Assembly (NCBI GenBank): GCA_041494705.1
Contig: JBGQBI010000001.1
Location: 120,001-152,000 of the forward strand
DNA: 32,000 nucleotides
From: Candidatus Methanoperedens sp.
GTDB lineage: Archaea; Halobacteriota; Methanosarcinia; Methanosarcinales; Methanoperedenaceae
Reading direction: 5' to 3'
Part shown: in pieces, positions 5,002 to 19,501 of the stretch
Layout of the letters: each line of letters starts with the position of its first letter
Numbering within the stretch: position 1 is the first letter of the stretch
Program-made: the position numbers and the translations under genes
The notes under the pieces: generated by a model
Databases searched by the model: none
What the model was told of the DNA's origin: nothing
What the model saw: only the letters and a program-made list of their open reading frames with translations

Positions 5002-5010
5002 TTGAGAATT

Positions 5011-5044
5011 TTAACAGCGAACTAATACCAACTCGTACGAACTC
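5011..5044. repeat. 34-bp dispersed repeat, copy 1 (TTAACAGCGAACTAATACCAACTCGTACGAACTC)
   Basis: Identical to 6841-6874 except for one mismatch (C5029 versus G6859). Internally it is built from ~10-nt AACTnnTAC-like units. Confidence 0.9.
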
Positions 5045-5094
5045 CCGGCGGCGTGAGTTCGTATCAGTTAGTACGAGTTAGTTGTTGATTTTTT
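5020..5094 (+). terminator. long imperfect hairpin plus T6 tract between cdhC and cooC (terminator, attenuator or processing site)
   Basis: Perfect 9-bp core stem TACGAACTC (5036-5044) / GAGTTCGTA (5055-5063) with a 10-nt loop. The arms extend imperfectly to about 5020 and 5083. TTTTTT follows at 5089-5094, 18 nt before the cooC ATG. Confidence 0.4.
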
Positions 5095-5112
5095 CATTAC
5101 ACGATAATTCTT

Positions 5113-5862
5113 ATGAAAGTAATCGCAATTACAGGCAAGGGCGGAACAGGAAAAACAGCCGTAGCCGGGATGCTGATAAAACACCTGTCTTCAGGCAAAA
5201 AAACGCTGCTCGCCATTGACGCAGACCCGGATTCCAACCTGCCAGATGTGCTTGGCGTGAAAGTAGAAAAGACAATCGGCGACATGCGGGAATTCATGCT
5301 ACAGGAGCGCGATAAGATGCCTCCTGATACCAATAAGGAGAGGTTGCTGGAATCGAAAGTGTATGAGGTTCTCACTGAGATGCCGCATTATGACCTGCTG
5401 GTGATGGGACGGCCTGAGGGTGCTGGCTGCTACTGCTTTGCCAATAACCTCCTGCGCGGGATTATGGACAGGATTCTTAAGAACTATGACCTGACGATAA
5501 TCGACACGGCGGCAGGGCTTGAGCATTTGTCGAGGCGGATAATCCGCGATGTGGATGAACTGCTCGTGGTCACGGACGGATCGCGCCGCGGCCTCCAGAC
5601 TGCTGAGCGGATACGGGAACTGGCAAAGTCGCTGAATTTGAATATTAAAAAGATGCATGTGATAGCGAACAAGGTCACACCTGAGAACCGCGCAAGGATT
5701 GAGGAGTATGCGAGGGAGTTGAAGATGGACCTGGTGGGAGTTGTGCCTTTTGATGAGACGCTTGCGAGTTTTGACCTTGAGGGGAGACCGCTTGCGGAGT
5801 TGCCGGAGGATTCGGCTGCATTCCTGGGGGTCGGGGAGATTGCGAAGAGGATGGGGTTGTAG
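5113..5862 (+). CDS. cooC: CooC-type Ni-insertion accessory ATPase for CODH/ACS
   Basis: 249 aa. Deviant Walker A motif GKGGTGKT at the N-terminus, the CxC metal-binding motif (GAGCYCF), and a position directly after cdhABC. Confidence 0.9.
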   Translation: MKVIAITGKGGTGKTAVAGMLIKHLSSGKKTLLAIDADPDSNLPDVLGVKVEKTIGDMREFMLQERDKMPPDTNKERLLESKVYEVLTEMPHYDLLVMGRPEGAGCYCFANNLLRGIMDRILKNYDLTIIDTAAGLEHLSRRIIRDVDELLVVTDGSRRGLQTAERIRELAKSLNLNIKKMHVIANKVTPENRARIEEYARELKMDLVGVVPFDETLASFDLEGRPLAELPEDSAAFLGVGEIAKRMGL

Positions 5863-5913
5863 GGAAAAATAATCGAACACAAACATTGCGTTATTTTAAT
5901 CAACGATATCTAT

Positions 5914-5954
5914 TTAATGTCTAAATGTCATCTCTAAATGTTGATAGTAAATGT
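5914..5954 (+). promoter_or_regulatory. direct-repeat candidate operator of the vapBC operon
   Basis: TAAATGT occurs at 5922-5928, 5935-5941 and 5948-5954, at exact 13-bp spacing, with a TTAATGT variant at 5914-5920. The last copy overlaps the vapB ATG at 5951. Confidence 0.35.
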
Positions 5955-6184
5955 CCGAAGTAAAATATATCCAGAGCGAACTTGAAACGCATCTTTATTC
6001 ACAACTAAAAAAGACTGCTGAAAAGAAAGGCATTTCTATAAAAGAAGCTATAAGAGAAGCTGTGTTAGAGTGGGTCAGGGGTAAATCCGGTTTTGATCCA
6101 AAAGACCCCTTCTTCAAAATGCGTACTTTCCAGGCATCAAAAGACTTATCAGAAAAACATGATGAAATCTACAACGAGGACTGA
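5951..6184 (+). CDS. vapB: ribbon-helix-helix (CopG/VapB-like) antitoxin
   Basis: 77 aa. The N-terminal pattern (YIQSELETHLYSQLKKTAEKKGISIKEAIREAV) fits a beta-strand followed by two helices, as in an RHH fold. The stop lies 2 nt before the PIN-domain gene. Confidence 0.7.
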   Translation: MSEVKYIQSELETHLYSQLKKTAEKKGISIKEAIREAVLEWVRGKSGFDPKDPFFKMRTFQASKDLSEKHDEIYNED

Positions 6185-6186
6185 AT

Positions 6187-6597
6187 ATGCTTTTCGTGGA
6201 TACATCGGCTTTTCTCGCGCTTGTAAATGAAAAGGACAACAATCATGCCGCTGCGACCAGTTTTCTTGAAGAAATTAAGAATGGCAAGGTAAAGATAAAG
6301 AAAATAATAACTTCGGATTATATAATAGATGAGACCCTGACAAGAATTCGCTACACTGTGGGGCACAAGGAAGCGGTTGAATGGGGACAGGACATCATTG
6401 CGTCGAATGTTGTTGAGAAAATCGGGGTGGGACGGGAATTATTTGAGCCTGCATGGGAACTTTTTAAGACGTATGATGATAAGAAATTAAGTTTTACAGA
6501 CTGCACGAGTTTTGCTATAATGAAGACACGGGGCATAGAGAAGGTGTTTTCATTTGACGATGATTTTGAAAGAGTGGGATTCAAGCTTATGCCGTGA
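6187..6597 (+). CDS. vapC: PIN-domain ribonuclease toxin
   Basis: 136 aa. Acidic PIN residues occur in the expected order (MLFVDTSAF..., IIDET, SFTDC, FDDDF), and the gene is paired tightly with the upstream antitoxin. Confidence 0.85.
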   Translation: MLFVDTSAFLALVNEKDNNHAAATSFLEEIKNGKVKIKKIITSDYIIDETLTRIRYTVGHKEAVEWGQDIIASNVVEKIGVGRELFEPAWELFKTYDDKKLSFTDCTSFAIMKTRGIEKVFSFDDDFERVGFKLMP

Positions 6598-6742
6598 AGC
6601 ATTAACTTCCTGATGTTATCGCACGTATCGGTGTCATCTGTGCTATCCATCTGAGGCGTCACATATTTATTACATTTTAAATATTTAACCACAGGCGCCG
6701 GTATTGCCTCCAGACAACCGCCTCACATCAAAATTGAAAAAC

Positions 6743-6767
6743 CACAGAGCGCACAGAGGACACAGAG
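6743..6767. repeat. 3x tandem CACAGAG heptamer at 9-bp period
   Basis: CACAGAGcgCACAGAGgaCACAGAG, read directly from the sequence. Confidence 0.9.
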
Positions 6768-6840
6768 AAAAAAGATTGGGAAAAAAGTTTTGAGAATAGT
6801 TATTAAAGGAAGAGAAGAACCGTTAAAACAGGCACAAACA

Positions 6841-6874
6841 TTAACAGCGAACTAATACGAACTCGTACGAACTC
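6841..6874. repeat. 34-bp dispersed repeat, copy 2
   Basis: TTAACAGCGAACTAATACGAACTCGTACGAACTC. It has one mismatch to 5011-5044 and the same orientation. Confidence 0.9.
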
Positions 6875-6901
6875 TGAGTTAAATATTTTCAACTGTTCGG
6901 C

Positions 6902-7003
6902 GCGCCGATAGAAACCGATGCAGCCTATGCGTATCGGAAATATAAACCGCAGATAAACACAGATAAACGCAGATTTGCTGCATCGTATCTGAAGCATCGG
7001 CGC
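6902..7003. repeat. imperfect ~100-bp hairpin enclosing a 3x tandem AAACnCAGAT repeat
   Basis: The outer stem is GCGCCGAT (6902-6909) / ATCGGCGC (6996-7003) and the inner stem is CGATGCAGC (6916-6924) / GCTGCATCG (6977-6985). Between them lie AAACCGCAGAT, AAACACAGAT and AAACGCAGAT (6944-6974). Confidence 0.8.
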
Positions 7004-7049
7004 CAATAATTTAATATTAAAAAAGTGATATATTTGTGGCGCTTTTCAC

Positions 7050-7074
7050 CGCAAAGTTCGCAAAGACCGCAAAG
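7050..7074. repeat. 3x tandem CGCAAAG heptamer at 9-bp period
   Basis: CGCAAAGttCGCAAAGacCGCAAAG, read directly from the sequence. Confidence 0.9.
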
Positions 7075-7279
7075 CTGGGCGTATTTTAGTAATGCGCCAT
7101 GAGCGGCTTCACGCGACCGGGCGCCCCGCTTGAGCGCAGGACTGTCGCCTCCCGCACAAGGACGCAGGCGGATGCGGGCTTGTTCCGCACCTGTGGGCGG
7201 CGCACGTCTTGGCGCGTATGGAATAATTGACGGTTGAATTTGAGAGTTGTATTTTTATGAGAGTAGTGTAAACAGTATA

Positions 7280-7287
7280 TTTAAATA
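7280..7287 (+). promoter_or_regulatory. candidate TATA box for the 7314 gene (short-leader or leaderless transcript)
   Basis: TTTAAATA lies 27-34 nt upstream of the ATG at 7314, and no Shine-Dalgarno sequence is visible between them. Confidence 0.3.
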
Positions 7288-7313
7288 TGTAAACAAAATT
7301 ATATAAGGTAAAT

Positions 7314-7625
7314 ATGAAACCGTTTAGAAGACCTATTACAAAACTTGGGCGATGTCCATTATGCAAAGAACTTGTCTCGAAAAGAGTAAGACATAGTATT
7401 TTTGGAGATAATCCTATGTGGATTACTACAAACATGGGAGTTTTCCATAGGCATTGTTGGGAATTGCATAAAAAGAGTATTCCAACAAAGACCGAATCAA
7501 CAGCAACATTTTCAATGCCTCCATTTAAATTAGAAATAAAAAGGGAGAAAGAGGAAATAAAAACGGAAGACGAGAGGAAGGAGCAAAAAGAAAAAGATGT
7601 AAATGGGGAAAAAGGAAAAGGTTGA
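7314..7625 (+). CDS. hypothetical small zinc-finger-like protein with a Lys/Glu-rich tail
   Basis: 103-aa ORF. CPLC...HRHC could form a Cys2-His/Cys zinc site. The C-terminal third is highly charged (KREKEEIKTEDERKEQKEKD). Low GC. I recognise no family. Confidence 0.5.
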   Translation: MKPFRRPITKLGRCPLCKELVSKRVRHSIFGDNPMWITTNMGVFHRHCWELHKKSIPTKTESTATFSMPPFKLEIKREKEEIKTEDERKEQKEKDVNGEKGKG

Positions 7626-7649
7626 TAAGTTTCATAAAGGAGAGATTAA

Positions 7650-7991
7650 ATGGGCGATGAATTGTCGGCGGCAATATTTGGGGGGATAATTGGCGGTATT
7701 CTTGGCTGTGCTGGAACTATCATAACATCTTATTGGGGGCCGCGAAAGTTAGATGAATATAAGGAGAATCTAGCTGAAAAGCGACTTAATGGTCCGCGAA
7801 AAAGTAACCTGAAAAAGTTACTGGAGGATGATAAATTTAAGTGGCGCCGTCTTTCCACATTGGCTCGTGTAACTGGAACTAATCAAGAAGAATGTCGGCG
7901 ATTGTTGATAGAAATCGGTGCGAGAGGTTCACTCTCAGAAGGAGATGAAATGTGGGGATTGATAAGCCGTAATCCAATTGAAGAGCAATAG
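7650..7991 (+). CDS. hypothetical protein: N-terminal Gly-rich transmembrane helix plus a possible winged-helix C-terminal domain
   Basis: 113-aa ORF with GGAGAG upstream. AAIFGGIIGGILGCAGTIITSYW is hydrophobic. The C-terminal WRRLSTLARVTGTNQEECRRLLIEIGA resembles an HTH segment. I recognise no family. Confidence 0.5.
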   Translation: MGDELSAAIFGGIIGGILGCAGTIITSYWGPRKLDEYKENLAEKRLNGPRKSNLKKLLEDDKFKWRRLSTLARVTGTNQEECRRLLIEIGARGSLSEGDEMWGLISRNPIEEQ

Positions 7992-8074
7992 AATTTCCCG
8001 CGAAAGCCCCCGCCGCCCAAAAGCCGCACAATCGGAATATTTAAAATAATTGAGGTACTCTACACTCAGGTATC

Positions 8075-9742
8075 ATGAGAAGCGATAATATAAAAAAAGG
8101 ACTTGAACGCGCCCCTCACAGGTCTTTATTAAAAGCAGTAGGGCTGACCGATGAAGAAATGGCTCTTCCCTTCATAGGAGTGGTAAACTCCTGGAACGAG
8201 ATAATACCTGGGCACATTCATCTTGACAAGCTCGCCGAAGCCGTAAAAGCCGGGATACGCATGGCAGGCGGCGTACCTTTTGAGTTCAACACCATCGGGA
8301 TATGCGACGGCATAGCAATGGGGCATACGGGCATGAAGAATTCGCTGCCAAGCAGGGAATTGATAGCAGACAGCATCGAACTCATGGTCGAAGCGCACCA
8401 GTTTGACGGCATGGTCATGATACCCACATGCGATAAAATTGTCCCTGGTCACCTGATGGCAGCAGGAAGGCTGGACATCCCCGCCATCGTTGTGACAGGC
8501 GGACCCATGATGCCGGGGATGGTCGGGGATGAGCCCCGCGATGTTATCTCTCTCTTCGAGGCAGTCGGGGCGCGCAGAAACAATACGATAACAGACCGGG
8601 AACTCAAGAACCTTGAGGACTGCGCGTGCTGCGGGGCGGGTTCATGCGCCGGATTATTTACAGCCAATACGATGGCATGTGTTACAGAGGCGCTGGGCTT
8701 GAGCCTTCCCGGATGCGGAACAGCGCATGCAGTGGACGCCAAAAAGACAAGGATAGCAAAGCATTCAGGCATGAAGATACTTGAACTCGTGGAAAAAGGC
8801 ATAAGACCAACCCAAATAGTCACACGGGAATCGCTTGATAATGCGATACGCGTGGACATGGCAATAGGGGGCAGCACAAATACCGCGCTTCATTTACCCG
8901 CAATAGCGCAGGAATTCGGGCTTGACCTTCCGCTTATGAGGTTTGATGAAATAAGCAAAGAGACTCCGCATCTTATAAACCTGAGGCCGGGAGGAGACCG
9001 ATACCTTATAGACTTTGAACGCGCCGGCGGAGTACCCGCAATCCAGCAGCGGATGCAGGAGAAACTTGACATGGGCACCCTGACCGTATCAGGAAAAACC
9101 CTTGGAGAGAACCTGAAGGAATATATAATCATAAATCCGCGCGCCAATAAGGAGATAATCGCAACACTTGAATCACCGATACATGCCGAAGGTGGTATAG
9201 CTGTGCTGAAAGGCAGCCTCGCTCCTGATGGTTCGGTAATAAAACAGACTGCAGTAAGCCGGAAAATGCAGAGGCACTCAGGGCCTGCGCGTGTTTTTGA
9301 CGGCGAGGAGGCGGCGATGAAGGCTATAATGGCAAAGAAAATCAAATCTGGCGATTGCCTCGTTATCAGGTATGAAGGGCCAAAAGGAGGACCGGGAATG
9401 CGGGAAATGCTTTCACCGACTGCTGCGATAGCAGGCATGGGACTTATCGATTCGGTTGCGCTCATAACAGATGGGCGGTTCTCTGGCGGCACGAGGGGCC
9501 CGTGCATAGGTCATGTATCGCCTGAGGCTGCTGATGGCGGAGCCATTGCGCTTGTGAGGGATGGCGATATTATTGAGATTGATATACCAAAGCGTGTGTT
9601 GAATCTCAAGCTCTCGCAGGAAGAACTTGAGAAAAGAAGAAAAGCGTGGAAACCACCGGCGCCAAAGGTTACGAGAGGTTATCTGGCGCGGTATCAGAAA
9701 CAGGTGAGTTCGGCTGATAAAGGAGCCATCTTCAGGAATTAA
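8075..9742 (+). CDS. ilvD: dihydroxy-acid dehydratase
   Basis: 555 aa. IlvD/Edd signatures are present ([30 protein letters not shown]). Confidence 0.95.
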
Positions 9743-9812
9743 TTCCACCATCTTTTTATATATCCGATGCAATGTATAATTATCGCAAAGACCTATTAAT
9801 TCAGGCTTTAAT

Positions 9813-10106
9813 ATGAAAACACTTGATGAAATAAAAAATATCCTTTCGCAGCATAAGGAAGAAATAAAACAAAAGTATGAAGTCAGAGAGATAGGGATAT
9901 TTGGCTCATATGTGAGAGGAGAAGAAAGAGAAGCCAGCGATATTGACATTCTCGTGGAGCTTGGGAAAGCTATTGGATTGATAAAATTTATCGAAATCGA
10001 GGAATACCTTAGCGAGCTATTAGGGGTGAAAGTAGACCTCGTGATGAAAGGGGCACTCAAACCAAGGATAGGGAAGCGTATTTTAAGGGAAGTGGTCTAT
10101 GTATAA
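9813..10106 (+). CDS. mntA: minimal nucleotidyltransferase (MNT) antitoxin of a HEPN/MNT module
   Basis: 97 aa. It carries the GSxxRGx(n)SDIDILV nucleotidyltransferase motif (GIFGSYVRGEEREASDIDILVE) and overlaps the downstream HEPN gene by 8 nt. Confidence 0.85.
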   Translation: MKTLDEIKNILSQHKEEIKQKYEVREIGIFGSYVRGEEREASDIDILVELGKAIGLIKFIEIEEYLSELLGVKVDLVMKGALKPRIGKRILREVVYV

Positions 10107-10437
10107 GAGAGAGTACGGGGACTATATAGAAGACATAGTTGATGCCATGGATAAAGCCGTGCAATTTACGGAAAATATGGACTACAGTGATTTTATTCAT
10201 GATAACAAGACTATCTTTGCTGTAATCAGGGCGCTGGAAATAATAGGCGAAGCCGTGAAAAAGATTCCTGAGGATGTAAGAATAAAGAATCCTGAAATTC
10301 CCTGGAAGCGCATAGCAGGGATGAGAGATAAGGTTATTCACGAGTATTTTGGTGTCAAGTTAGAAGTTGTCTGGACAACGGTAAAAGAGGAAATTCCTGC
10401 TTTAAAACCCCTTTTTCAAGATATTCTGAAAAAGTAA
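10099..10437 (+). CDS. hepT: HEPN-domain (DUF86) toxin of a HEPN/MNT module
   Basis: 112 aa. The Rx4HxY RNase motif is present as RDKVIHEY. Overlaps the MNT gene. Confidence 0.85.
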   Translation: MYKREYGDYIEDIVDAMDKAVQFTENMDYSDFIHDNKTIFAVIRALEIIGEAVKKIPEDVRIKNPEIPWKRIAGMRDKVIHEYFGVKLEVVWTTVKEEIPALKPLFQDILKK

Positions 10438-10472
10438 ATAGCCATGATGTGGCCGTTTTTTGCAATTTTGCA

Positions 10473-11435
10473 TTAATATTTCCGCTCAATCATATAATCC
10501 GCAAGCCCTATGAGCGTCTTCTTTGCTTCGGAATCAGGAAGCACTGACAGTGCAGCCTTGCCCTCATCCACAAACCCAAGCGCCTTGTTCATTGCATAAT
10601 CAACCGAACCTGATTCTTTAAGGGTGGTAAGCGCTGCGGATATCTCGCTCCTTGTCGCATTGCTCTTCCCGAGCGCATCTATGCTGACCCCTTTTGACAA
10701 TGCATGGATAACAATAAGTGTGCGTTTACCCTCGATAATGTCCCCTCCCTGCGCTTTCCCAAGAATCTCCTCAGGCGTAATAAGGTCAATAACATCGTCG
10801 TATATCTGGAACCCAACTCCTGTCAGCCGGCCGAAATCCCACAGCGCACGTACTACTTCCCTGTTAGCCCCGGACAGTACAGCGCCCATTTTCACGGCAG
10901 TGGCAAAAAGCACTGCGGTCTTTTTCTCCACCATGCGCATGTACTCTTCTTCGGTAACGTCCTTCCTTGTTTCAAAATTCATATCCATCCACTGGCCTTC
11001 GCAGATATCCGTACAGGTTTTCGAAAGGAGTTCAAGACTTTCAACAAGCCTTTGCGGCTCGCTTTTTGTGCAGGAAAGGATTTCAAAAGCTTTTGAATAA
11101 AGGGCATCGCCCGCGATAATCGCTCTCGGAACACCCCATTTTTTATGAACTGTGGTAAGTCCCCTTCTGAGGTCTGCCTCGTCCATTATGTCATCATGTA
11201 TCAAAGTGAAATTATGAACCAGTTCTACAGCCACTGCCGCGGGAAGTACATCTTCGGGCTTGCCTCCTACAGCTTCTGCCGCCAATAACAATGCAGACGG
11301 GCGAAGCCTTTTTCCTCCACCATCCAGCAGGTGGCGCATGGCTTTATACAATTCATCCGGGGGAGTGATAGGAAGGAATTTGGGGATGGATTCGTCCACC
11401 AATTTGGCTTTTTTCTGGAGGATTTCTTCAATCAT
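10473..11435 (-). CDS. idsA: (geranyl)geranyl diphosphate synthase, trans-polyprenyl synthetase family
   Basis: 320 aa. The first and second Asp-rich motifs are present (LIHDDIMDEAD and QIYDDVID). Confidence 0.9.
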   Translation of the reverse strand: MIEEILQKKAKLVDESIPKFLPITPPDELYKAMRHLLDGGGKRLRPSALLLAAEAVGGKPEDVLPAAVAVELVHNFTLIHDDIMDEADLRRGLTTVHKKWGVPRAIIAGDALYSKAFEILSCTKSEPQRLVESLELLSKTCTDICEGQWMDMNFETRKDVTEEEYMRMVEKKTAVLFATAVKMGAVLSGANREVVRALWDFGRLTGVGFQIYDDVIDLITPEEILGKAQGGDIIEGKRTLIVIHALSKGVSIDALGKSNATRSEISAALTTLKESGSVDYAMNKALGFVDEGKAALSVLPDSEAKKTLIGLADYMIERKY

Positions 11436-11477
11436 AAACTGGTTATCTCCGTTTTAAAGAATTTCTTATGAGGTGTT

Positions 11478-12815
11478 TCATAAAACCATTTCCTCACCGT
11501 TTCTCATGATATGCACCGTGTCTCCGAATACATAGCCTGCATCCTCGGCAAGCTCGACGTAATGGGAATGCATTACCATATTTCCGTGTGATGGTATTAC
11601 CTGTTCAGGGTTTACCATTCTCAAAAGTTCCCAGTGGTCTTCCTTGGAAGCATGCCCTGAAACATGCACATTTTCATAAAGGCGCGCTCCTGCCATTTTC
11701 AATTTTATTTCAAGAGCATGCCTGTTCGCCATCGTCATCGGGCTGGGTATGGTGTTCGCCGAAAAAATCACTTTATCTCCGGGCTCAATCCTAAACTGCG
11801 TCTCCCCGTTCGCTATCCGTGTCAGGATAGAATCGGGTTCGCCCTGATGTCCCGTTACAATGGGGAGGTATCTCTTCTTTCCCTCCTGGGATATGCGTTT
11901 CAAGGCTTTTTCGACAGCGTTCCTGTTGCCGTATACTTCAAGGTTTTCCGGGAATTTTATATACTTCATCTTCTCGGCTATTGAAAGATAGCGTTCCATC
12001 GAACGCCCGAGAAGCACCGGTATCCTGTCCATCTCCTCAGCCGCCTGGATAATTGCATTAATCCGGGCCACGTGGGATGAGAATGTGGTGATTATAACTC
12101 CCGATTCCGTTTCTTCAGTTCCAAGAAGCACATCGCGGACAAGGTCTTTTGCTATCTGTTCAGACGGCGTCTTCCCCGATAGCCCTGAGTTCGTACTCTC
12201 GGTAATCATTGCCTTTACACCCTCATTTCCGAGTTTCCGGAGCCTCTGGAAGTCGGGCGCTTCCTGCAGTGTAGGCGTGCGGTCCAATTTGAAATCGCTG
12301 GCATACAAGATTACGCCATCCGGGGTATGGATTGCCGCAAACGCCGAATCCACAATGCTGTGCTGTATGCGGACAAATTCAATCTGTATATCCGGCGTTA
12401 ATTTATAGATCCCGCCAAGGCGGAGGGGAATCACTTCATTGGTAACCCTGAATTTCTTTTCATCCGATATCTCATGTTTTACAAGTTCTGCAGTATAAGG
12501 TGTGGCGATAATAGGCGCTTTGTACCTGTGCGCCAATTTGGAGATTGCCCCGATATGGTCAAGGTGACCATGTGTGCATACAATAGCCCGGACGCTTCCG
12601 CCGGCTTCGTTCATGATGGTGTCGTCTGGAATAGCCCCCATCTTGATGAGTTCCATTGAGTGCATCTTGTCTATTTCCACATCTTCATGTATCTGCACCC
12701 TGTCCAATTGCAGTCCCATGTCAAGTACAATTATATCCTTATCAATCCTTACGCCAGTCATGTTCCGGCCCATTTCGTTATAGCCGCCGACTGCAATAAT
12801 TCCAATTTCTGTCAT
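11478..12815 (-). CDS. rnj: archaeal RNase J (metallo-beta-lactamase/beta-CASP ribonuclease)
   Basis: HGHLDH motif and a size typical of archaeal RNase J. The ORF track starts at a GTG (12824). I prefer the ATG at 12813-12815 (MTEIGIIAVGG...) because GGAGTG lies 7 nt upstream. Confidence 0.85.
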   Translation of the reverse strand: MTEIGIIAVGGYNEMGRNMTGVRIDKDIIVLDMGLQLDRVQIHEDVEIDKMHSMELIKMGAIPDDTIMNEAGGSVRAIVCTHGHLDHIGAISKLAHRYKAPIIATPYTAELVKHEISDEKKFRVTNEVIPLRLGGIYKLTPDIQIEFVRIQHSIVDSAFAAIHTPDGVILYASDFKLDRTPTLQEAPDFQRLRKLGNEGVKAMITESTNSGLSGKTPSEQIAKDLVRDVLLGTEETESGVIITTFSSHVARINAIIQAAEEMDRIPVLLGRSMERYLSIAEKMKYIKFPENLEVYGNRNAVEKALKRISQEGKKRYLPIVTGHQGEPDSILTRIANGETQFRIEPGDKVIFSANTIPSPMTMANRHALEIKLKMAGARLYENVHVSGHASKEDHWELLRMVNPEQVIPSHGNMVMHSHYVELAEDAGYVFGDTVHIMRNGEEMVL

Positions 12816-12854
12816 TTGATTCACTCCATAATAATAATTCTTTATATTTTACAT

Positions 12855-13961
12855 TTACATTTTATATCTTTTTCTTGCAAATTTAGCAGTTTCAAAACCT
12901 CTCTGCTCCAAAAATTCTCTTGTCCTGCCTGTAATAACCACAGGCGCATTACCAAGCTCTTCAACATTCTGGCATCCGTTCAGGAACATGGCAACTTTGA
13001 GCTCTTCAATAATCATGGCGAGCTTATCGACCACATCTTTCTGTCCCTTTAAAGCAGGCGCTACAAGCGGGAGCGCAATACCGCAGAGGGACGCCCCCAG
13101 GGCAATGGATTTTGCGGCATCAATGCCTGAACGGATGCCGCCCGTTGCGATAACTGGGATGGAGATAGTGGATTCTACAATGCTTACTGCGGTCGGTATT
13201 CCCCAGTTCCAGAATTCCTTGCCAAGATGTTCTGACAATACATCACCGCGTTTTTGCGCCCTGTATGTTTCAACTCCAGCCCAGCTTGTCCCGCCAAGAC
13301 CGCCGACGTCTATGGCAGCTGCGCCCGCATCGCATATAGCCAATGCCTGGGAATGAGCTATGCCCGCTCCCGTCTCTTTTACGATTACGGGAACCGAAAG
13401 TTCGGTACAGATTTTCTTGATTGCAGCAAGGCATCCCGATGCATCGATATTGCCTTCGGGCTGTATAGCCTCCTGCAGGAAATTCAAGTGAATTGCCATA
13501 GCATCTGCGCCTATCATCTCGACAGCCCGCTCAAGTCCTTCAATTCCGAACTCGCCAAGCTGGGCTGCGCCCACATTTCCATAGATAAACGCATTGGGAG
13601 CTTTATCCCTGACTATCCTGAATGAATCTTCCATGCTCGGGTCTTCTATTGCTGCCCTCTGGCTGCCCACTCCGATACCTATGCCAAGCTCCTCAGCCGC
13701 GCTTGCAAGGGTGGCATTTACGGATTTGGTGTCAGGATGCCCGCCCGTCATCGATGCTATCAGGAACGGGGAGCGTAATTTCTTACCCAGGAACTCAGTC
13801 TCAAGATTCAGGTTTTTCTTGTTGATTTCGGGAAGACAGTTATGAACAAGTTCAAGGTCATCAAAACCGCACGCTCTAAGCCCTGTATGACCTCTATGCG
13901 CTTCAACGTCTTTTTCAACGCATAATAATAAATGTTCAATCTTCCTATCGGATGTCGTCAT
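12855..13961 (-). CDS. fni: type 2 (FMN-dependent) isopentenyl-diphosphate delta-isomerase
   Basis: 368 aa. TIM-barrel flavoenzyme motifs are present (SMTGG, VKETGAG, GGLGGTSWA, ATGGIRSG), and the gene sits in the isoprenoid operon. Confidence 0.9.
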   Translation of the reverse strand: MTTSDRKIEHLLLCVEKDVEAHRGHTGLRACGFDDLELVHNCLPEINKKNLNLETEFLGKKLRSPFLIASMTGGHPDTKSVNATLASAAEELGIGIGVGSQRAAIEDPSMEDSFRIVRDKAPNAFIYGNVGAAQLGEFGIEGLERAVEMIGADAMAIHLNFLQEAIQPEGNIDASGCLAAIKKICTELSVPVIVKETGAGIAHSQALAICDAGAAAIDVGGLGGTSWAGVETYRAQKRGDVLSEHLGKEFWNWGIPTAVSIVESTISIPVIATGGIRSGIDAAKSIALGASLCGIALPLVAPALKGQKDVVDKLAMIIEELKVAMFLNGCQNVEELGNAPVVITGRTREFLEQRGFETAKFARKRYKM

Positions 13962-13995
13962 CTAATACCTTTACGTTCGAACTTTTATATATAAC

Positions 13996-14763
13996 TCATT
14001 TGTCTGTTATCAATGTCCCTACATCTTCTCCATATAAAAATCTTGAGACGACACCTTTCCTTCCGGCATTGAAAATCCGCGAGCTTATCCCTTTGCCTGC
14101 AAGTTCCAGGAGTTCGGATACCTTCCCGAGCATTCCGCCGGTCACGTCGGTTGATGTTGAACCCCTGATATTTTTCTTCATATCGGCAAAGCTAAGAGGC
14201 GTGATTTTTTTTATAACAATGCCATCGGCATCCATCACGCCGTCAACATCGCTTCCCGCCCCTATTTTTGTGGCGTTTAAAGCAAGTGCTATGTACGGGA
14301 TTATCCTGTCGCCTGAGAGGACTGCCGCTCCTTTAATCCTGTCCATTACCACATCACCGTGAATTACAGGTATTATCCCTCTTTCCAGCATCAATTTCAC
14401 CTGGCTGAGCTGGAATTCAATGAGTTTCCCGTTTTCAAGGAGGCATGAACTTAACGGGTGAACAGGCAGCGCATGGGCGCCCGCACGATTCAATGAATCC
14501 ACTACCATCGAATTCAGTGTTTTGACCGAAACGTGTGTCAAATACACGCCTTCTGCATCGAATCTTTCGTCAAGTTTGTATTTCATCGCCTGCGGATGAC
14601 CGAAAGACCCTGCCCCGTGGACAAGTATCAGGTTTGAACCTGAATCAGAGTAAAACGAGGCAATCTCCTCTGATATCCTGTCGATTTCATCTTTCCTGGC
14701 GCTTGATACTGAACCCTTGTCCGTTATCACGCTTCCCCCGATTTTTAAAATCACAAGGCTCAT
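13996..14763 (-). CDS. ipk: isopentenyl phosphate kinase (amino-acid-kinase fold)
   Basis: 255 aa. ILKIGGSVITDK and LVHGAGSFGH motifs. The start overlaps the mvk stop (ATGA). Confidence 0.85.
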   Translation of the reverse strand: MSLVILKIGGSVITDKGSVSSARKDEIDRISEEIASFYSDSGSNLILVHGAGSFGHPQAMKYKLDERFDAEGVYLTHVSVKTLNSMVVDSLNRAGAHALPVHPLSSCLLENGKLIEFQLSQVKLMLERGIIPVIHGDVVMDRIKGAAVLSGDRIIPYIALALNATKIGAGSDVDGVMDADGIVIKKITPLSFADMKKNIRGSTSTDVTGGMLGKVSELLELAGKGISSRIFNAGRKGVVSRFLYGEDVGTLITDK

Positions 14764-15659
14764 TCCTGAATTACCCCCTCTGGAGTGGCTCTGGTAATTA
14801 TCGCTTTCCCGCCTGCTTTTTCTATGGCTTCTGCCACTTCACGGGGTGAATCCGAAAGGGCAACCATACAGCCGCCGCCGCCTGCGCCTGTGAGTTTTGC
14901 CCCATACGCTCCAGCGTTCCTTGCAGCATAAACAAGGGCTGATAATTCCATTGTGCTCACGCCAAGGGCATCAAGCAGCCCGTGGTTCACGTTCATGAGT
15001 TTGCCAAGCGAAGCATAATTTTTTTGGGAAACCATGACTTTGCCCTGTCCTGCGAATGAACCGATTGTTTTGATTATCGGGTTTATGATGTCGGGATGTT
15101 CTTCCCTGAGCCGGGCGACCTGCAAAACGAGTTTTGCGGTTTTCTTGGGAGATGCGCCTTTATTCGTGTTGCCGATTACTATGCCGCAGTCAAGGAGTTC
15201 AAGTTTCTTTCGCGAAGGTATCTCCACCACCCCGCCAAATGTCGAGACAAATGTATCGGTTGGGCTTGCCGCTCCCTGCACTTCCTTTTCTATTTCATGC
15301 CCCATTTTTGCAAGTTCTTCTTTTTCATATCCAAGCCCGAATTCGATATTGATGGCGGATAGCGTTGCTATGGTGACGGCTGCGGATGAGCCGAGTCCCG
15401 AGCCTACGGGGATTTCTGAGGTTATTTCTATAAAGACGCTGGGAGAGCCCAGTTTCCGGATAGCTGAGGAGACATAAGGATGAATATCAAAATCAAGTTT
15501 TGTTGTACCGATATCAGAGGAGATGGTTATTTCATTAGCTCTTTTTGCAAGAACGCGGGTTCGAAGCTCGACTGCGCATGCGATAGCCGGCTCGCCATAT
15601 ACCACGGCATGCTCGCCAAACAGGTATATCTTGCCCGGGGCTGAGCAGGTAGTGGTCAT
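14760..15659 (-). CDS. mvk: mevalonate kinase (GHMP kinase)
   Basis: 299 aa. N-terminal GKIYLFGEHAVVYG, GHMP motif PVGSGLGSSAA, and C-terminal KLTGAGGGGC. Confidence 0.9.
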   Translation of the reverse strand: MTTTCSAPGKIYLFGEHAVVYGEPAIACAVELRTRVLAKRANEITISSDIGTTKLDFDIHPYVSSAIRKLGSPSVFIEITSEIPVGSGLGSSAAVTIATLSAINIEFGLGYEKEELAKMGHEIEKEVQGAASPTDTFVSTFGGVVEIPSRKKLELLDCGIVIGNTNKGASPKKTAKLVLQVARLREEHPDIINPIIKTIGSFAGQGKVMVSQKNYASLGKLMNVNHGLLDALGVSTMELSALVYAARNAGAYGAKLTGAGGGGCMVALSDSPREVAEAIEKAGGKAIITRATPEGVIQE

Positions 15660-15764
15660 TTCAGAAGTTCTCCTGCCTTAGAGATGACACGGATAAATAT
15701 AAGCGTTGCCGATTCGAACATACGAAACGAAAAAAGATTTAAAGCTTGAAGACAAGCATCGTAT

Positions 15765-15875
15765 ATGAGTGAATTTTCTAAAGCTGAGCTTGAAGAAATC
15801 GAACAACTAAAAAAAGAATCTTCGAAGGGAGAGCATGTTCGATGGGACGATTTAAAGAAGGATTTGTTTTCGTGA
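15765..15875 (+). CDS. very small ORF (36 aa), possible antitoxin fragment
   Basis: Hand-found ORF: MSEFSKAELEEIEQLKKESSKGEHVRWDDLKKDLFS. Charged and helical-looking. No clear RBS and no family recognised. Confidence 0.2.
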   Translation: MSEFSKAELEEIEQLKKESSKGEHVRWDDLKKDLFS

Positions 15876-15926
15876 ATCTGTTAGAACAAAGGGTTTTAGT
15901 CGGTTCAAGCTGATGAAGGCAGGAAA

Positions 15927-16100
15927 ATGAAATCCATTGAGCTTTATAAACAGGGCAAAGTCAGTCTCGGTCTTGGGGCGAAAATTGCAAGGCTTTCAAT
16001 ATCGGAATATATAGACTTGTTAAAAGAGTATAAGGTTCAAATCAACATCGATATTGATGATGCTAAAAAAGCGTTGGGGTATGCGAGAGGGAATCTATAA
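15927..16100 (+). CDS. small UPF0175-like (antitoxin-like) protein, 57 aa
   Basis: Hand-found ORF: MKSIELYKQGKVSLGLGAKIARLSISEYIDLLKEYKVQINIDIDDAKKALGYARGNL. The LY..GK.SLG.AA..A..S..EF...L pattern matches my memory of UPF0175 antitoxin-like proteins. No partner toxin follows. Confidence 0.4.
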   Translation: MKSIELYKQGKVSLGLGAKIARLSISEYIDLLKEYKVQINIDIDDAKKALGYARGNL

Positions 16101-16739
16101 CCTTCGCATTGATATCCCCTCCCCATCACACACAAGAACCTCGCCCTCATATCCGCGCGGCAGCGTCCGCAAGTTAGCGAAACTCAGCTTATCCCCAAGC
16201 TGCGCCATGATGCTCATATAACTTCGCAGCTTCTTCATCTCATACCGCTTAAGCACCCATGCCATTCCATCCGCGCTCTCACTCGCCATCTCCTTCTCAA
16301 GCCCCTCGCAGTGCATCACTTCCACGCCCCGCTCGCCCATAAAAAAAGGATAGCATCTGCAAATCATGGGACGAAATTCGTATATCGTGCAAGCGCCATC
16401 CCTGTAAAAAAAGCACTCTCCATCATCATTTCGCGGCAGTATCCACCCGATTGCCCACATATTATCACCGTCTGATAAGCATGAATAAATATCAGGCTGC
16501 GCCACATCATCCCATTTCATTCCTGTTCCTTTCATTATGCGCCTGATATCATCGGGAAATATAGAAATCGCATTAGAGGGACGCAAAATATCCTTCGTAA
16601 TCCTGATGCTGAAATTATCATGGCAGCACCAGCCGCAGCGCGCGCATGAAAAGCCGGATTTCAGGATATCCGGGACATAACCTCGTGAATGTGTATGAAT
16701 GAGGCTTTCCACTCTTCCCCGGAGAGAGACGATGTCCAT
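16095..16739 (-). CDS. YkgJ-family (CxxCxxCC) zinc/iron-chelating cysteine-cluster protein
   Basis: 214 aa. CARCGWCCHDNF is the CxxCxxCC signature, and further Cys residues lie downstream (CTIYEFRPMICRCYPF). Confidence 0.7.
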   Translation of the reverse strand: MDIVSLRGRVESLIHTHSRGYVPDILKSGFSCARCGWCCHDNFSIRITKDILRPSNAISIFPDDIRRIMKGTGMKWDDVAQPDIYSCLSDGDNMWAIGWILPRNDDGECFFYRDGACTIYEFRPMICRCYPFFMGERGVEVMHCEGLEKEMASESADGMAWVLKRYEMKKLRSYMSIMAQLGDKLSFANLRTLPRGYEGEVLVCDGEGISMRRL

Positions 16740-16921
16740 GAATAAACATCGTATCGGGAGGGATATAAAGTCTTTTGATTGTTCAAAGGTGCTGGGGATT
16801 TAATCAAAATCCAGCAAGCAAGGAAGCAAGGAAAAGATATATAAATGTTTGGAGACACAATAAAAATGATGAGTTGTGGGAATATCCATAAAGTTTCAAT
16901 AATTAATTTGGGTGATATTGA

Positions 16922-18289
16922 ATGAGTGAGAAAGAAGCTGTAACCGAAAAAGCACCAGAGGCAGCGAAGCAGAACTGTGTATCTCAAAAACAACAACCAG
17001 AGTTCTCGCTAACAGCAGGTTCGCCTGTTGGACGCATCCTGTTCATGCAAAGAACCATCGGGAATCAGGCAGTTGGGAGGTTTATTAAGTCAGGCGCCCT
17101 GCATGGTAAATTCAGGATCGGAAAAGCCGATGATATCTATGAAAAGGAAGCCGACATAGCAGCAAAGCAGGTGATGAGTGACATAAATATGCCCGACGGG
17201 CTGTCACCCCAGGTGCACAAAGACCTGGCTGGCCCGCCTGCTATGAAACGCTCCTGCAACTGTGAAGGTAAATCCAGATGGGACGAAAACCCGGAGGTGC
17301 GCCGCTTGCCTGCACTGTCATTCTCCACTATTGAAGATAGCGTCGTTGCAAGGGTAATCGACCCTAACGACCTCGCCGACAGCCAGCCAGTCGAAGAAAT
17401 CTTCGGCGTGGTAAAGGCCGATGAAAAGATGGCACAGCGCAAAGCCGCAGACGGAGCATTTCCTCAAGCACCCGACCTATCCCAATCGATCGACGGCGCT
17501 TGCCGCAGCGGTGGACAACCCCTTCCATCCGAATCACAGCAGTTCATGGAGCGCCGTTTCGGTCACAACTTCGGCGCCGTGCGCATTCACGCCGACCAGA
17601 TTGCGGGAGACCTGGCTCACCAGCTCCAAGCCCGTGCCTTCACTACCGGCAACCACGTCTTCTTCGCCCCGGGCGAATTCCAGCCTGACCGGGCGAGTGG
17701 AAAGTACCTCCTCGCCCACGAACTTGCGCATGTGGTGCAGCAGAGCAAGGACGGTGTGTACCGGAATATCCAGCGCACGGGGAACGGTGGCCTGAACTGT
17801 CCGCCCTATGCTAGCTATGACGGGTCACGTGACCTCTCCACCTACAATTGCGCAGGCCTCGCGCACCGGACATATGATTTCAAGAGCCTCACCAATACGA
17901 AGACTGCTCTGGCCAATGGATCGAGCCTAGCCTGCGGCACTCCCTGCAATCACGTCGGGGTGGTGAAGCACTGGCTGTGGGAATACGACATCCGCGTGGA
18001 AGATTCCGATGGTAAAGTGGTCGTCCCCACCTGGCAAGACTTCCATACGGTGGGGGGTCCCACAGATGGCGATCCGGTGGCGAAAGATTCCGACGAGTTT
18101 TACACGAAGAATGGAAAGAGGAAGGTCTACGGCCCCGGCACTGCACCGAGCTTCAAGCCCGTCGCCAAGGACCAGGCGCTCAAGAACGAGCCGGCCGAGA
18201 CGCCGATGATCGACGAGAAGGGCAAGCCCCTCTACAAAGTGCGCTCGAACATCAAGGAGACCTGTTATTGCTTGCCGTGTCCAAAGTAG
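16922..18289 (+). CDS. DUF4157-domain protein with HExxH, polymorphic-toxin-like architecture and a Cys-rich C-terminal domain
   Basis: 455 aa. The N-terminus (LFMQRTIGNQAVGRFI...YEKEADIAAKQVM) and core (ERRFGHNFGAVRIHAD...ARAFTTGNHVFFAPGEF...LLAHELAHVVQQ) match the DUF4157 pattern as I remember it. Residues ~285-455 form an unassigned domain with 8 Cys. Confidence 0.8.
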   Translation: MSEKEAVTEKAPEAAKQNCVSQKQQPEFSLTAGSPVGRILFMQRTIGNQAVGRFIKSGALHGKFRIGKADDIYEKEADIAAKQVMSDINMPDGLSPQVHKDLAGPPAMKRSCNCEGKSRWDENPEVRRLPALSFSTIEDSVVARVIDPNDLADSQPVEEIFGVVKADEKMAQRKAADGAFPQAPDLSQSIDGACRSGGQPLPSESQQFMERRFGHNFGAVRIHADQIAGDLAHQLQARAFTTGNHVFFAPGEFQPDRASGKYLLAHELAHVVQQSKDGVYRNIQRTGNGGLNCPPYASYDGSRDLSTYNCAGLAHRTYDFKSLTNTKTALANGSSLACGTPCNHVGVVKHWLWEYDIRVEDSDGKVVVPTWQDFHTVGGPTDGDPVAKDSDEFYTKNGKRKVYGPGTAPSFKPVAKDQALKNEPAETPMIDEKGKPLYKVRSNIKETCYCLPCPK

Positions 18290-18382
18290 TCCACGTGGGC
18301 GGCCCACCCGGTTTGCTCATGCCTCTCCTCGCCTTCACGACGACGGATTGCGCACCGTTTGCACGAGCCTGAGGCGAAGCAG

Positions 18383-18757
18383 ATGAACATCGAGACGCTC
18401 ACGTTTCCCAGCGAGTCAATCCGTTGCCAGCGAGGTGATTACATCCTGCAGCGGGGCGCTGGCGGCGGGCGCATCCGGGTCTACAGGGTGGAGGACATGG
18501 TCAAGCTGAGTCGTCTCGTGCCGTTCGGCAAAGACGCGCTCATCGAAGAACAAACTATCCTCGATTCGGAGCGGCCGGCGTTCATGGACGAGGTCCACCT
18601 CCTCCTCACGGCATTTGACTTGAACTTCGCTTCGCTTGAGGAGGCCATACGTGCCGTCGAGGCCGGCGGCCTGGGAGCCACTACCGAGGGGTTTTGCCTG
18701 GATATCCGCCGTTTTCCCCTGAGTAGCAGCCAGGTTTATCGGCCCGCTGCGCACTGA
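18383..18757 (+). CDS. hypothetical protein, candidate immunity partner of the DUF4157 protein
   Basis: The ORF track starts at a TTG (18359); the first ATG is at 18383 (MNIETLTFPSE...). It lies ~95 nt downstream of the toxin-like gene and shares its CGN/ATC/AAG codon bias. No family recognised. Confidence 0.45.
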   Translation: MNIETLTFPSESIRCQRGDYILQRGAGGGRIRVYRVEDMVKLSRLVPFGKDALIEEQTILDSERPAFMDEVHLLLTAFDLNFASLEEAIRAVEAGGLGATTEGFCLDIRRFPLSSSQVYRPAAH

Positions 18758-18910
18758 ATGTGCAATGATGGAAAGCTGTCAGGAACCTTATTCAAATAAT
18801 CTTTTTCTGGATATTTAGTATTGTTTTTCAAATTTATTAATGCAAATCTCTTCAAATTGCAATATTATTAAATATGATAAGGTTAAATTATCTACTACGG
18901 GGTGTTTTAT

Positions 18911-19501
18911 ATGGCATACGAAGCAAAGAATTTCGAGAGCTTGTTGGGAACGAAAGGGTTAAGCGATACGCTGCTGAAAAACCATTTTACGTTATACCAG
19001 GGCTATGTAACAAATACGAATAAAGTAGCGGATGCGCTTGGCGCTATGGCAAAAGAAGGGAAGACCGCAACTCCTGAATACGCAGAACTCAAGCGCAGAT
19101 TCGGGTGGGAGTGGAACGGCATGAGATTGCATGAATTCTATTTCGGGAATATGGTAAAAGGCGGGAAACCAATCGATAAAAATACGAATTTATACAAGAA
19201 AATTGTCGCTGATTTTGGGTCATATGAGAACTGGGAAAAGGATATCAAGGCGACAGGTGCCATGCGCGGCATCGGCTGGGTTATATTATATTATGACTTT
19301 CATGCCGGACGGCTCTTTAATACATGGATAAATGAACACGATTCGGGTCATCTTTGCGGCGCCAGCCCCATGCTGGTCATGGATGTCTTCGAACATGCCT
19401 ATATGGTTGATTACGGGCTTAAGAAAGCAGATTATATCGAGGCATTTTTCAAGGCAATCGACTGGACAATCGATCCAAAATTCGATTCCATGCTGGGGTG
19501 A
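18911..19501 (+). CDS. sod: Fe/Mn superoxide dismutase family protein (divergent)
   Basis: The ORF opens at GTG 18902; the ATG at 18911 gives MAYEAKNFESL.... SOD-like ligand contexts are present (KNHFTLYQGYV, RLHEFYFGNM, DVFEHAYMVDY). Confidence 0.75.
   Translation: MAYEAKNFESLLGTKGLSDTLLKNHFTLYQGYVTNTNKVADALGAMAKEGKTATPEYAELKRRFGWEWNGMRLHEFYFGNMVKGGKPIDKNTNLYKKIVADFGSYENWEKDIKATGAMRGIGWVILYYDFHAGRLFNTWINEHDSGHLCGASPMLVMDVFEHAYMVDYGLKKADYIEAFFKAIDWTIDPKFDSMLG

Follow-up and report, generated by a model that had tools for sequence, protein, structure and literature searches.

The gene at positions 16922-18289 of a 32,000-nucleotide stretch of Candidatus Methanoperedens sp. (assembly GCA_041494705.1, contig JBGQBI010000001.1, positions 120,001-152,000; the whole stretch is called the window below) encodes a 455-residue protein in which a short Methanoperedens-type N-terminal domain is joined to a DUF4157 core and an unannotated C-terminal domain, and it is followed by a small partner gene. 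Comparison with homologous loci (L numbers) and proteins (P numbers) places the fusion at codons 86-90 (nt 17178-17189), inside a conserved VM(R)MPD motif. On the same sequence evidence, the downstream gene and all that follows the joint in the effector gene (linker, DUF4157 core and C-terminal domain) are a single foreign block from high-GC bacteria. The explanation that we favour, with a probability of roughly 0.6, is that the two genes are an orphan effector-immunity pair of a contractile injection system (CIS), either extracellular (eCIS) or akin to type VI secretion systems (T6SS), and that the effector gene is a cross-domain chimera; in this explanation toxicity, delivery and enzymatic activity are predicted properties. 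The gene pair is divided as follows.

16922-18289, plus strand: chimeric DUF4157 effector gene, an open reading frame (ORF) of 455 aa with a Pfam match
16922-17178, plus strand: host-type N-terminal domain (aa 1-86), candidate injection-system loading sequence, GC content at third codon positions (GC3) 0.45, recognised by likeness to Methanoperedens effectors
17177-17191, plus strand: recombination junction, codons 86-90; Methanoperedens-type similarity ends at 17178 and bacterial-type similarity (to L067) starts at 17189
17189-17518, plus strand: bacterial-type linker (aa 90-199), the least constrained segment, GC3 0.59, matching only the family that shares the C-terminal domain
17519-17749, plus strand: DUF4157/eCIS_core domain (aa 200-276; Pfam PF13699), with HELAH at 17717-17731
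17777-18286, plus strand: unannotated C-terminal domain (aa 286-455), candidate toxin, without a match in Pfam, NCBIfam or PADLOC; Cys310 codon at 17849-17851, His375 codon at 18044-18046
18383-18757, plus strand: candidate immunity gene, 124 aa from the ATG at 18383, GC3 0.75; in 15 of 20 loci a homologue follows the C-terminal domain

Residues 1-85 line up from residue 1 onwards, at 50-60% identity, with the N-terminal ends of numerous DUF4157 proteins, the named ones of which all belong to Methanoperedens. At the nucleotide level, positions 17020-17178 of the window are 72-77% identical to the 5' ends of at least nine effector genes in the Methanoperedens loci L029 and L030, and every such match stops at 17176-17178. 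The host-type N-terminal domain is absent from 17 bacterial loci, except for weak matches (32-39%) in two of them, L017 and L019. L067 (GC 0.61) aligns without a break over 1,634 nt, at 77.2% identity, to positions 17189-18752, which extend from codon 90 up to where the downstream gene ends; L006 and L007 match at 78% and 72% nucleotide identity, respectively, in the part that holds the DUF4157 core, the C-terminal domain and the partner gene. At the protein level the core shows 71-75% identity to those of L006 and L007, whereas its identity to the cores of the Methanoperedens effector arrays is 44-51%. The linker, which has the highest synonymous divergence (dS, 0.45) and the lowest identity in the gene, finds its amino acid matches in P0004 (63%), P0008 (52%) and other members of the C-terminal-domain family. 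The closest relatives of the remainder of the protein (P0004, P0007, P0008 and P0012) have a different N-terminal architecture and lie on contigs of 61-66% GC. At the joint itself the window reads VM-SDIN-MPD where both parental types read VM-R-MPD, SDIN being a four-codon interruption.

A preliminary description of this gene had proposed that a foreign toxin and immunity cassette was joined to a DUF4157 carrier, with the junction near codon 170 or 285. Host sequence is indeed fused to foreign DNA of bacterial type, of which the downstream gene is a part, but the DUF4157 core is itself foreign, only residues 1-86 are of host type, and the break in homology falls at codons 86-90. The codon counts behind the proposal were exact on recount: within the first 145 codons AGR makes up 5 of 9 Arg codons and ATA 2 of 9 Ile codons, beyond codon 170 CGN makes up 13 of 14 Arg codons and Lys is mainly AAG, and beyond about codon 160 none of the 8 Ile codons is ATA. 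When GC3 is plotted along the ORF, as had been suggested, it rises from 0.45 (codons 1-86) through 0.59 (codons 87-199) to 0.74 (codons 200-285 and again 286-455) and 0.75 (downstream ORF). This shift is significant against the other genes of the window, 25 in number, whose 243 hundred-codon windows have a GC3 of 0.498 +/- 0.074 and a maximum of 0.68 (z = 3.3); in a change-point permutation test, 0 of 2000 permutations reached the observed statistic. The island of raised GC spans approximately 17100-18760. The change in composition is gradual, with a likelihood plateau over codons 80-210 and a best single change point at about codon 205, and composition alone therefore misplaces the junction. 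It put the switch too far downstream because codons 87-199, where GC3 is intermediate, are also the part of the gene with the weakest constraint and the highest dS.

Two relatives of the foreign block are of note in their own right. In L006 (ENA ERZ25039489 contig_22758, 4934-16520), one of the two nearest bacterial-like relatives, the toxin-immunity pair lies amid IS66, DDE_Tnp_1, DDE_3 and Y2 transposase genes and a group II intron reverse transcriptase, so that in this putative donor lineage the module sits in a highly mobile context. The 3.7-kb contig L011, from the uncultured archaeon LFW-151_2, is a second archaeal record of the C-terminal domain (67% identical) with an N-terminus that is not of the Methanoperedens type; a second DUF4157 core lies upstream, and the contig ends before any position for a partner gene. 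L011 may represent an independent acquisition.

The only strong Pfam match in the 455-aa protein is to PF13699, eCIS_core (formerly DUF4157), which covers aa 200-276 (E=1.7e-30; a score of 105.5 bits where the cut-off is 22; model positions 1-77 of 79). This match includes the HExxH-type motif HELAH at aa 266-270, in agreement with the earlier recognition of a DUF4157 gene with a HELAH core. The N-terminal region, which had likewise been thought to fit DUF4157, lies outside the match and is a separate conserved module. Over the whole protein the maximum Kyte-Doolittle hydropathy in a 19-residue window is 0.84, with neither a transmembrane segment nor a Sec signal.

The C-terminal domain has no match in Pfam, NCBIfam or PADLOC. 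An exhaustive profile search of 1.84 billion representatives yielded a family of 203 clusters at 50% identity, in which the domain stands nearly always at the protein C-terminus. Among 98 longer representatives it is fused to eCIS_core in 41, RHS_repeat in 4 (plus 2 YD-shell and 1 RHS), PG_binding_1 in 13, OmpA in 2 and LysM in 1, and the family also contains stand-alone forms of approximately 190 aa. In a genome collection the domain occurs in 20 species: two Methanoperedens, one uncultured archaeon and 17 bacteria of many phyla. Cys310 is invariant in 98 of 98 diverse representatives, and Asn309, Asp373, Phe374 and His375 are kept in at least 90%. An AlphaFold2 model built on a 35-sequence alignment (pLDDT 93, pTM 0.87) starts a 5-residue helix (DSSP, domain residues 25-29) with Cys310 and places His375 in strand 81-97, an arm of a long beta-hairpin. 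Foldseek searches of the PDB with this model returned nothing at E<=0.001 and a best TM score below 0.25, BFVD gave no match, and the family profile reached a best E of 0.25 against PDB sequences. Judging from the model and the conserved residues, the most economical guess is that the domain is probably a Cys310/His375(-Asp) hydrolase or transferase. Among the stand-alone forms (P0123-P0137; L015 6001-6888) we observed Cys/Pro-rich leaders (e.g. ...CPPCPAY) and short N-termini such as MPGC and MPLSGC, and in one of them, from the Desulfobacterales metagenome-assembled genome (MAG) L015, the partner gene still lies directly downstream.

The preliminary description had treated residues ~285-455 as an unassigned domain, which the family and fold searches uphold, and had counted 8 Cys in it where we count 7 (residues 293, 310, 338, 342, 448, 450 and 453). 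Its suggestion of a papain/NlpC-P60-like Cys-His hydrolase gains no support from Pfam, Foldseek or hhalign and reduces to a local Cys motif. Membership of NlpC/P60 (PF00877) was rejected: neither the domain nor 35 relatives gave a Pfam match at E<=1, and hhalign of the family profile with Escherichia coli MepS covered 14 columns at a probability of 0.5%. The residual likeness consists of 14 residues around the Cys (YNCAGLAHRTYDFK vs IDCSGFVQRTFREQ), and Cys and His follow one another in the NlpC/P60-like order, with the modelled Cys at a helix N-terminus. A peptidoglycan amidase, brought to mind by relatives with OmpA, SH3 or PG_binding_1 domains, was judged less likely, since the partner lacks an export signal and is kept under selection in a murein-less archaeon.

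The downstream gene accompanies the domain widely. A homologue follows it directly (at ~30-300 nt) in 15 of the 20 loci from the genome collection, namely 2 Methanoperedens and 13 bacterial loci from several phyla, and these include L015, where the domain stands alone without DUF4157; of the five loci without a partner, two end at a contig edge. The 25 partner homologues found in databases lie on contigs equal in size to those bearing toxin homologues. The 124-aa protein has no Pfam, NCBIfam or PADLOC match, no hydrophobic or transmembrane segment and no signal peptide; the 132-aa form that starts at a TTG at 18359 is probably an over-extension. The occurrence of the domain at the C-terminus of both DUF4157 and Rhs scaffolds, together with this conserved downstream gene, fits a toxin with its immunity protein, and the two are probably such a pair, as their genomic arrangement predicts; the purifying selection on both genes described below is indirect support. 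The polymorphic-toxin-like architecture proposed earlier agrees with this arrangement of scaffolds and cognate small gene. Because a soluble partner is selected in a murein-less archaeon, we infer that the target is cytoplasmic and present in both bacteria and archaea.

Both genes reside in a cassette that is missing from the corresponding site of a close relative.

16778-18848, no strand assigned: 2,071-bp insertion made up of promoter region, chimeric toxin gene, immunity gene and AT-rich tail (the cassette), missing from the relative's empty site
16778-16921, plus strand: AT-rich 5' region; a TATA-like box ATATATAAAT lies at 16837-16846 and a Shine-Dalgarno-like GGGTGAT at 16910-16916, both read from the sequence; kept in L003 and L010, absent from L032; putative promoter
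18758-18848, plus strand: AT-rich 91-bp 3' tail with oligo-T runs at ~18799-18806 and 18823-18828; in the window, L003 and L010, not in L032; putative archaeal terminator
16095-16739, minus strand: left flanking host gene, CxxCxxCC Fe/Zn-chelating domain protein (Pfam PF03692), syntenic in all Methanoperedens loci
18911-19501, plus strand: right flanking host gene, Fe/Mn superoxide dismutase (sod; Pfam Sod_Fe_C), next to the CxxCxxCC gene where the cassette is absent (empty sites L032, L057)

The empty-site contig L032, found via relatives of the CxxCxxCC gene, matches the flanks at ~90-92% nucleotide identity; this homology breaks off at 16777 and starts again at 18849. A gap of 245 bp, which holds no gene, separates sod from the CxxCxxCC gene in L032, and 154 unrelated bp stand in place of the cassette. 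The two genes are likewise adjacent in L057, a more distant relative. Since the empty site holds no resident gene, the chimera was not made at this locus and the finished cassette was inserted whole; it was assembled elsewhere, in a Methanoperedens-type context, and then moved in entire. The left boundary is common to L003, L010 and all cassette-bearing contigs, among them the MAGs GCA_041491305.1 and GCA_041476085.1 (the P0002 form), a Joint Genome Institute (JGI) metagenome contig and the MAG JAPZAO01. A search of the cassette ends for target-site duplications and terminal inverted repeats found only short, chance-level repeats, with a TTCAAA microhomology at both boundaries as one possible exception. 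There is no integrase or transposase near the cassette and no tRNA or Rfam feature in the window that might have served as an integration target, and a tblastn search of plasmid and phage collections with the C-terminal domain, aimed at a mobile vector, gave no match. The 154 bp at the empty site (L032, reverse complement, 2484-2637) contain an imperfect palindrome, GCCTCGGAGGCGCAGAGAACACAGAG...CTCTGTGACCTCCGTGTCTCCGGTGGC, and could be a small inserted element of their own, as L057 has only ~100 bp there.

Comparison of the window with L003 and L010 shows that both genes are under purifying selection and are maintained: the ratio of non-synonymous to synonymous divergence (dN/dS) is 0.19-0.33 for the toxin gene (Fisher p=3e-15) and 0.27 for the downstream gene (p=0.0016). 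Among Methanoperedens lineages the synonymous divergence of the cassette is 0.08-0.26, against 0.29-0.41 in flanking genes, and when the window is compared with L010 the cassette has 0.08-0.10, the CxxCxxCC gene and sod 0.37-0.41. The low values might reflect spread of the cassette among lineages after their split, or codon constraint in a GC-rich block; the profiles of nucleotide identity in cassette and flanks differ only modestly, and no weight is placed on the former.

The N-terminal module connects the protein to the injection systems of its host genus. In the Methanoperedens locus L029 five eCIS_core genes come after a gene for an Afp15-like AAA+ ATPase, and in L030 an effector array comes after baseplate genes; the N-terminal module of the window protein is that of at least nine array genes beside injection-system genes in these two loci. 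In every array effector the N-terminal module ends at this motif, VMxMP, at aa 83-84; past it GC3 is mosaic, with values between 0.22 and 0.75, which suggests from sequence that the VMxMP joint may have been used repeatedly. The first 40 residues of the window protein are rich in K, E and Q, with a mean hydropathy of -0.61, a proxy for the disordered signal of eCIS-associated toxins (EATs) and not the published support vector machine (SVM) score. DUF4157 is a marker of eCIS loci and their toxins (PMC8213781, PMC11297309) and highly specific to eCIS contexts (odds ratio 2614; PMC8213781). Contractile-injection clusters have been reported in all groups of anaerobic methanotrophic archaea (ANME), including ANME-2d, and on Methanoperedens extrachromosomal elements (PMC9012536, PMC13444090).

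Further observations concern L029 and L030 themselves. In the region 5027-8572 of L029 the host-type N-terminal module also heads a 367-aa protein without a Pfam DUF4157 match, and it heads a 156-aa ORF (6366-6836) as well. This ORF shares 4 nt with the beginning of an eCIS_core+OmpA gene (6833-8572), which does not have the module, and the two look like a split or frameshifted effector, with GC3 passing from 0.35 to ~0.7. Several array effectors of L029 and L030 carry PG_binding_1 or OmpA, although the archaeon is murein-less, and one neighbouring gene encodes PG_binding_1 with a cellulase domain; such peptidoglycan-binding effectors hint that the Methanoperedens injection system targets bacteria.

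In the mechanism that we propose, the host-type N-terminal module would address the effector to a resident injection particle, by analogy with AlgoCIS, the system of Algoriphagus machipongonensis; the bacterial-type part (linker, DUF4157 and C-terminal domain) is joined to this module inside the shared VM(R)MPD motif. The AlgoCIS loading role and the sharing of the module with array effectors would together explain the chimerism as a host address on a foreign payload. The C-terminal domain would be a toxic enzyme that attacks a cytoplasmic target, probably as a hydrolase or transferase with Cys310 and His375, and the downstream protein, which is soluble and signal-less, would bind and neutralise it in the producer and its kin. 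The finished 2.07-kb cassette sits between sod and the CxxCxxCC gene in some Methanoperedens lineages. A more specific version is put forward tentatively, as something that may well not hold: that this is a case of natural re-addressing, in which a bacterial effector and its immunity gene became usable by an archaeal CIS after only the first ~86 residues were exchanged for the host's loading sequence, through recombination at VM(R)MPD, a motif common to all DUF4157 cargo, and in which the C-terminal domain is a new Cys-His fold, without a relative in the PDB, acting on a shared cytoplasmic target. Under re-addressing, a target common to bacteria and archaea would be the reason why the archaeon retains the immunity gene under selection.

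Several points weigh against the favoured explanation. The bacterial identity of the closest donors, L067, L006 and L007, rests on their GC and gene content, and the 17 named bacterial species that carry the C-terminal domain are more distant than these three. No structural gene of an injection system (sheath, tube, baseplate or AAA+) is present in the 32-kb window or in the 19-kb locus L001. No known toxin family or fold fits the C-terminal domain, its activity being guessed from conserved residues and from the modelled Cys at a helix N-terminus, and the 13 family members with PG_binding_1 and two with OmpA could point to a cell-wall rather than a cytoplasmic target.

As to the origin of the chimera, the model of the preliminary description would have a resident archaeal carrier keep its N-terminus and DUF4157 core and exchange only the C-terminal toxin and immunity gene at codon ~170-285. 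The exchange of C-terminal cassettes is textbook behaviour of polymorphic toxins, and GC3 does keep rising along the gene, with a best single change point by likelihood at codon ~205. Yet the bacterial-like contigs align continuously from nt 17189 through linker, core, C-terminal domain and immunity gene, the core sides with L006 and L007 (71-75%) and not with the Methanoperedens arrays (44-51%), the intermediate GC3 of codons 87-199 falls on the least constrained, highest-dS segment, and the empty site shows no resident carrier at the locus, all of which makes this model very unlikely. That the whole gene came from one donor already equipped with such an N-terminus, its gradient reflecting amino acid content or uneven amelioration rather than intragenic recombination, is an unlikely account too. 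It would suit a cassette inserted whole with its own AT-rich promoter and tail and fused elsewhere than at the locus, as well as the weak N-terminal similarity (32-39%) in L017 and L019. It does not suit the 5' 257 nt, which are 72-77% identical to many Methanoperedens array genes and whose likeness ends abruptly at 17176-17178, nor the other N-terminal architecture of P0004, P0007, P0008 and P0012, nor a host-like GC3 of 0.45 where the corresponding region of bacterial homologues has 0.60-0.76, nor the four-codon SDIN scar exactly at the motif. An abrupt GC island in a MAG might, lastly, betray a bacterial fragment mis-joined into an archaeal contig during assembly or binning. Both flanks are archaeal, though, the orthologous copies differ by 5-12% with dN/dS well below 1, a pattern not expected from a chimeric assembly, and an identical protein is encoded in an NCBI MAG (GCA_041489935.1) and in an independent Logan assembly (run SRR29604878). 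The same cassette and junctions thus recur in independent assemblies and sequencing runs, which excludes an assembly artefact for practical purposes.

The pair might also be something other than an injected weapon: an addiction or defence module of the toxin-antitoxin (TA) type, or a non-toxic enzyme with a partner or chaperone, DUF4157 being then a cell-autonomous metallopeptidase. Injection genes are lacking nearby, other TA-type genes occur in the region (UPF0175, MNT/HepT and PIN in the window, ParE-like in relatives), the C-terminal domain and its partner exist in stand-alone form without a delivery domain, and the pair is patchily present among related strains, as addiction modules often are. 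Against this stand the lack of a PADLOC match, the specificity of DUF4157 for eCIS contexts, an N-terminus that is that of the effector arrays at Methanoperedens injection loci, and the Rhs/YD proteins that carry the same C-terminal domain. Furthermore, in Halogeometricum borinquense, a haloarchaeon, the CIS secretes DUF4157 proteins whose genes lie far from the injection cluster, and a downstream partner neutralises those that are toxic (PMC11566945). We consider a function other than as an injected effector rather unlikely and prefer the effector-immunity pair.

Polymorphic toxin systems such as Rhs/YD and contact-dependent inhibition (CDI) exchange C-terminal toxin and immunity cassettes at a conserved motif that marks the module. 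The window pair resembles them in that its C-terminal domain is found on unrelated scaffolds (DUF4157 in 41 representatives, RHS repeats in 4) together with a cognate small gene, and differs from them in that the exchanged unit is everything past the N-terminal module and the joint is VM(R)MPD, not the pre-toxin VENN or PxxxxDPxGL. The likeness to NlpC/P60 enzymes (E. coli MepS and the T6SS effectors Tae) lies in NCAGLAHRTY, against DCSGFVQRTF in MepS, and in a Cys modelled at a helix N-terminus with a His on a beta-strand ~65 residues on. The modelled helix, however, has 5 residues and the fold is dominated by the long beta-hairpin. The immunity proteins of Tae effectors are periplasmic, whereas the window's partner has no signal peptide.

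As in EATs (Geller 2021, PMC8213781; Danov 2024, PMC11297309), some of which have adjacent immunity genes, DUF4157 lies upstream of a C-terminal domain, which in EATs is a toxin, often an unannotated one, and in the window protein a predicted toxin. Of 1,130 predicted DUF4157 EATs, 983 lack a second domain (PMC8213781, PMC11297309). Most EATs are encoded within about ten genes of an eCIS operon, unlike the window gene, which is an orphan in a region of core metabolism. Cgo1 and Cgo2 of AlgoCIS (PMC8894135) share with the window protein the order of a hydrophilic disordered N-terminal domain, DUF4157 and a C-terminal effector domain that varies. Loading of cargo into the AlgoCIS tube depends on the disordered, system-specific N-terminal domain and can do without DUF4157 and the C-terminal domain (bioRxiv 10.64898/2026.05.27.728243). 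AlgoCIS, in contrast to the archaeal pair, is bacterial and has no detectable N-terminal sequence similarity to it, and the roles of the window's modules are assigned from homology and chimerism.

The haloarchaeal CIS/T6SS pairs (Hbor_02990, Hbor_38900; PMC11566945) resemble the window pair in their archaeal host, two-gene layout and small unannotated downstream gene, and haloarchaeal DUF4157 proteins are encoded both inside and far from the injection cluster (PMC11566945). The window pair differs in coming from another archaeal class (Methanoperedens, ANME-2d), in having another C-terminal domain and partner family, neither of which is in Pfam, and in having an effector body of recent bacterial origin on a host-type N-terminus. 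What is new is the unannotated predicted toxin domain and the precise cross-domain fusion point, the kind of system being already known.

If the favoured explanation is correct, the chimera provides independent, evolutionary support for the view that a short N-terminal region, and not DUF4157, is the system-specific address, as reported by one engineering study of a single bacterial system. VM-x-MPD would then be a precise conserved splice point usable for re-targeting cargo. It would also follow that Methanoperedens takes ready-made toxin-immunity modules from bacteria and keeps them under selection, which bears on competition and interaction of these uncultured archaea in their consortia. 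Candidates for a new enzymatic activity would be the toxin domain's small family of 203 clusters, which carries no annotation, and the family of its partner; the model is confident and structural relatives are lacking. If the mosaic GC3 of the other array effectors has the same cause, the VM(R)MPD joint would be a general route for the capture of bacterial weapons by ANME archaea. For polymorphic toxins the known picture would be unchanged, and a well-resolved case would be added to it in an archaeal group whose effectors had not previously been examined.

The remainder of the window is core chromosome, with genes for carbon monoxide dehydrogenase/acetyl-CoA synthase (CODH/ACS), ilvD, mevalonate-pathway genes, SMC and aspartyl-tRNA synthetase (AspRS). 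A second variable spot lies at 15660-16100, between the mevalonate kinase and CxxCxxCC genes, where the window has a UPF0175 antitoxin-like gene (15927-16100) and a 36-aa ORF. L003, L004 and L005 have in the same spot a ParE-like toxin gene with a 103-aa partner instead (L003 6567-7144), and the window and L010 are unalignable there (42-53% identity). An MNT/HepT (nucleotidyltransferase and HEPN) toxin-antitoxin pair follows ilvD at 9813-10437, where the syntenic loci L003 and L004 have a DUF6010 gene, and a PIN-domain gene lies at 6187-6597. Taken together, the MNT/HepT, PIN and UPF0175 slots show small TA-type modules turning over in several intergenic slots of this conserved region.

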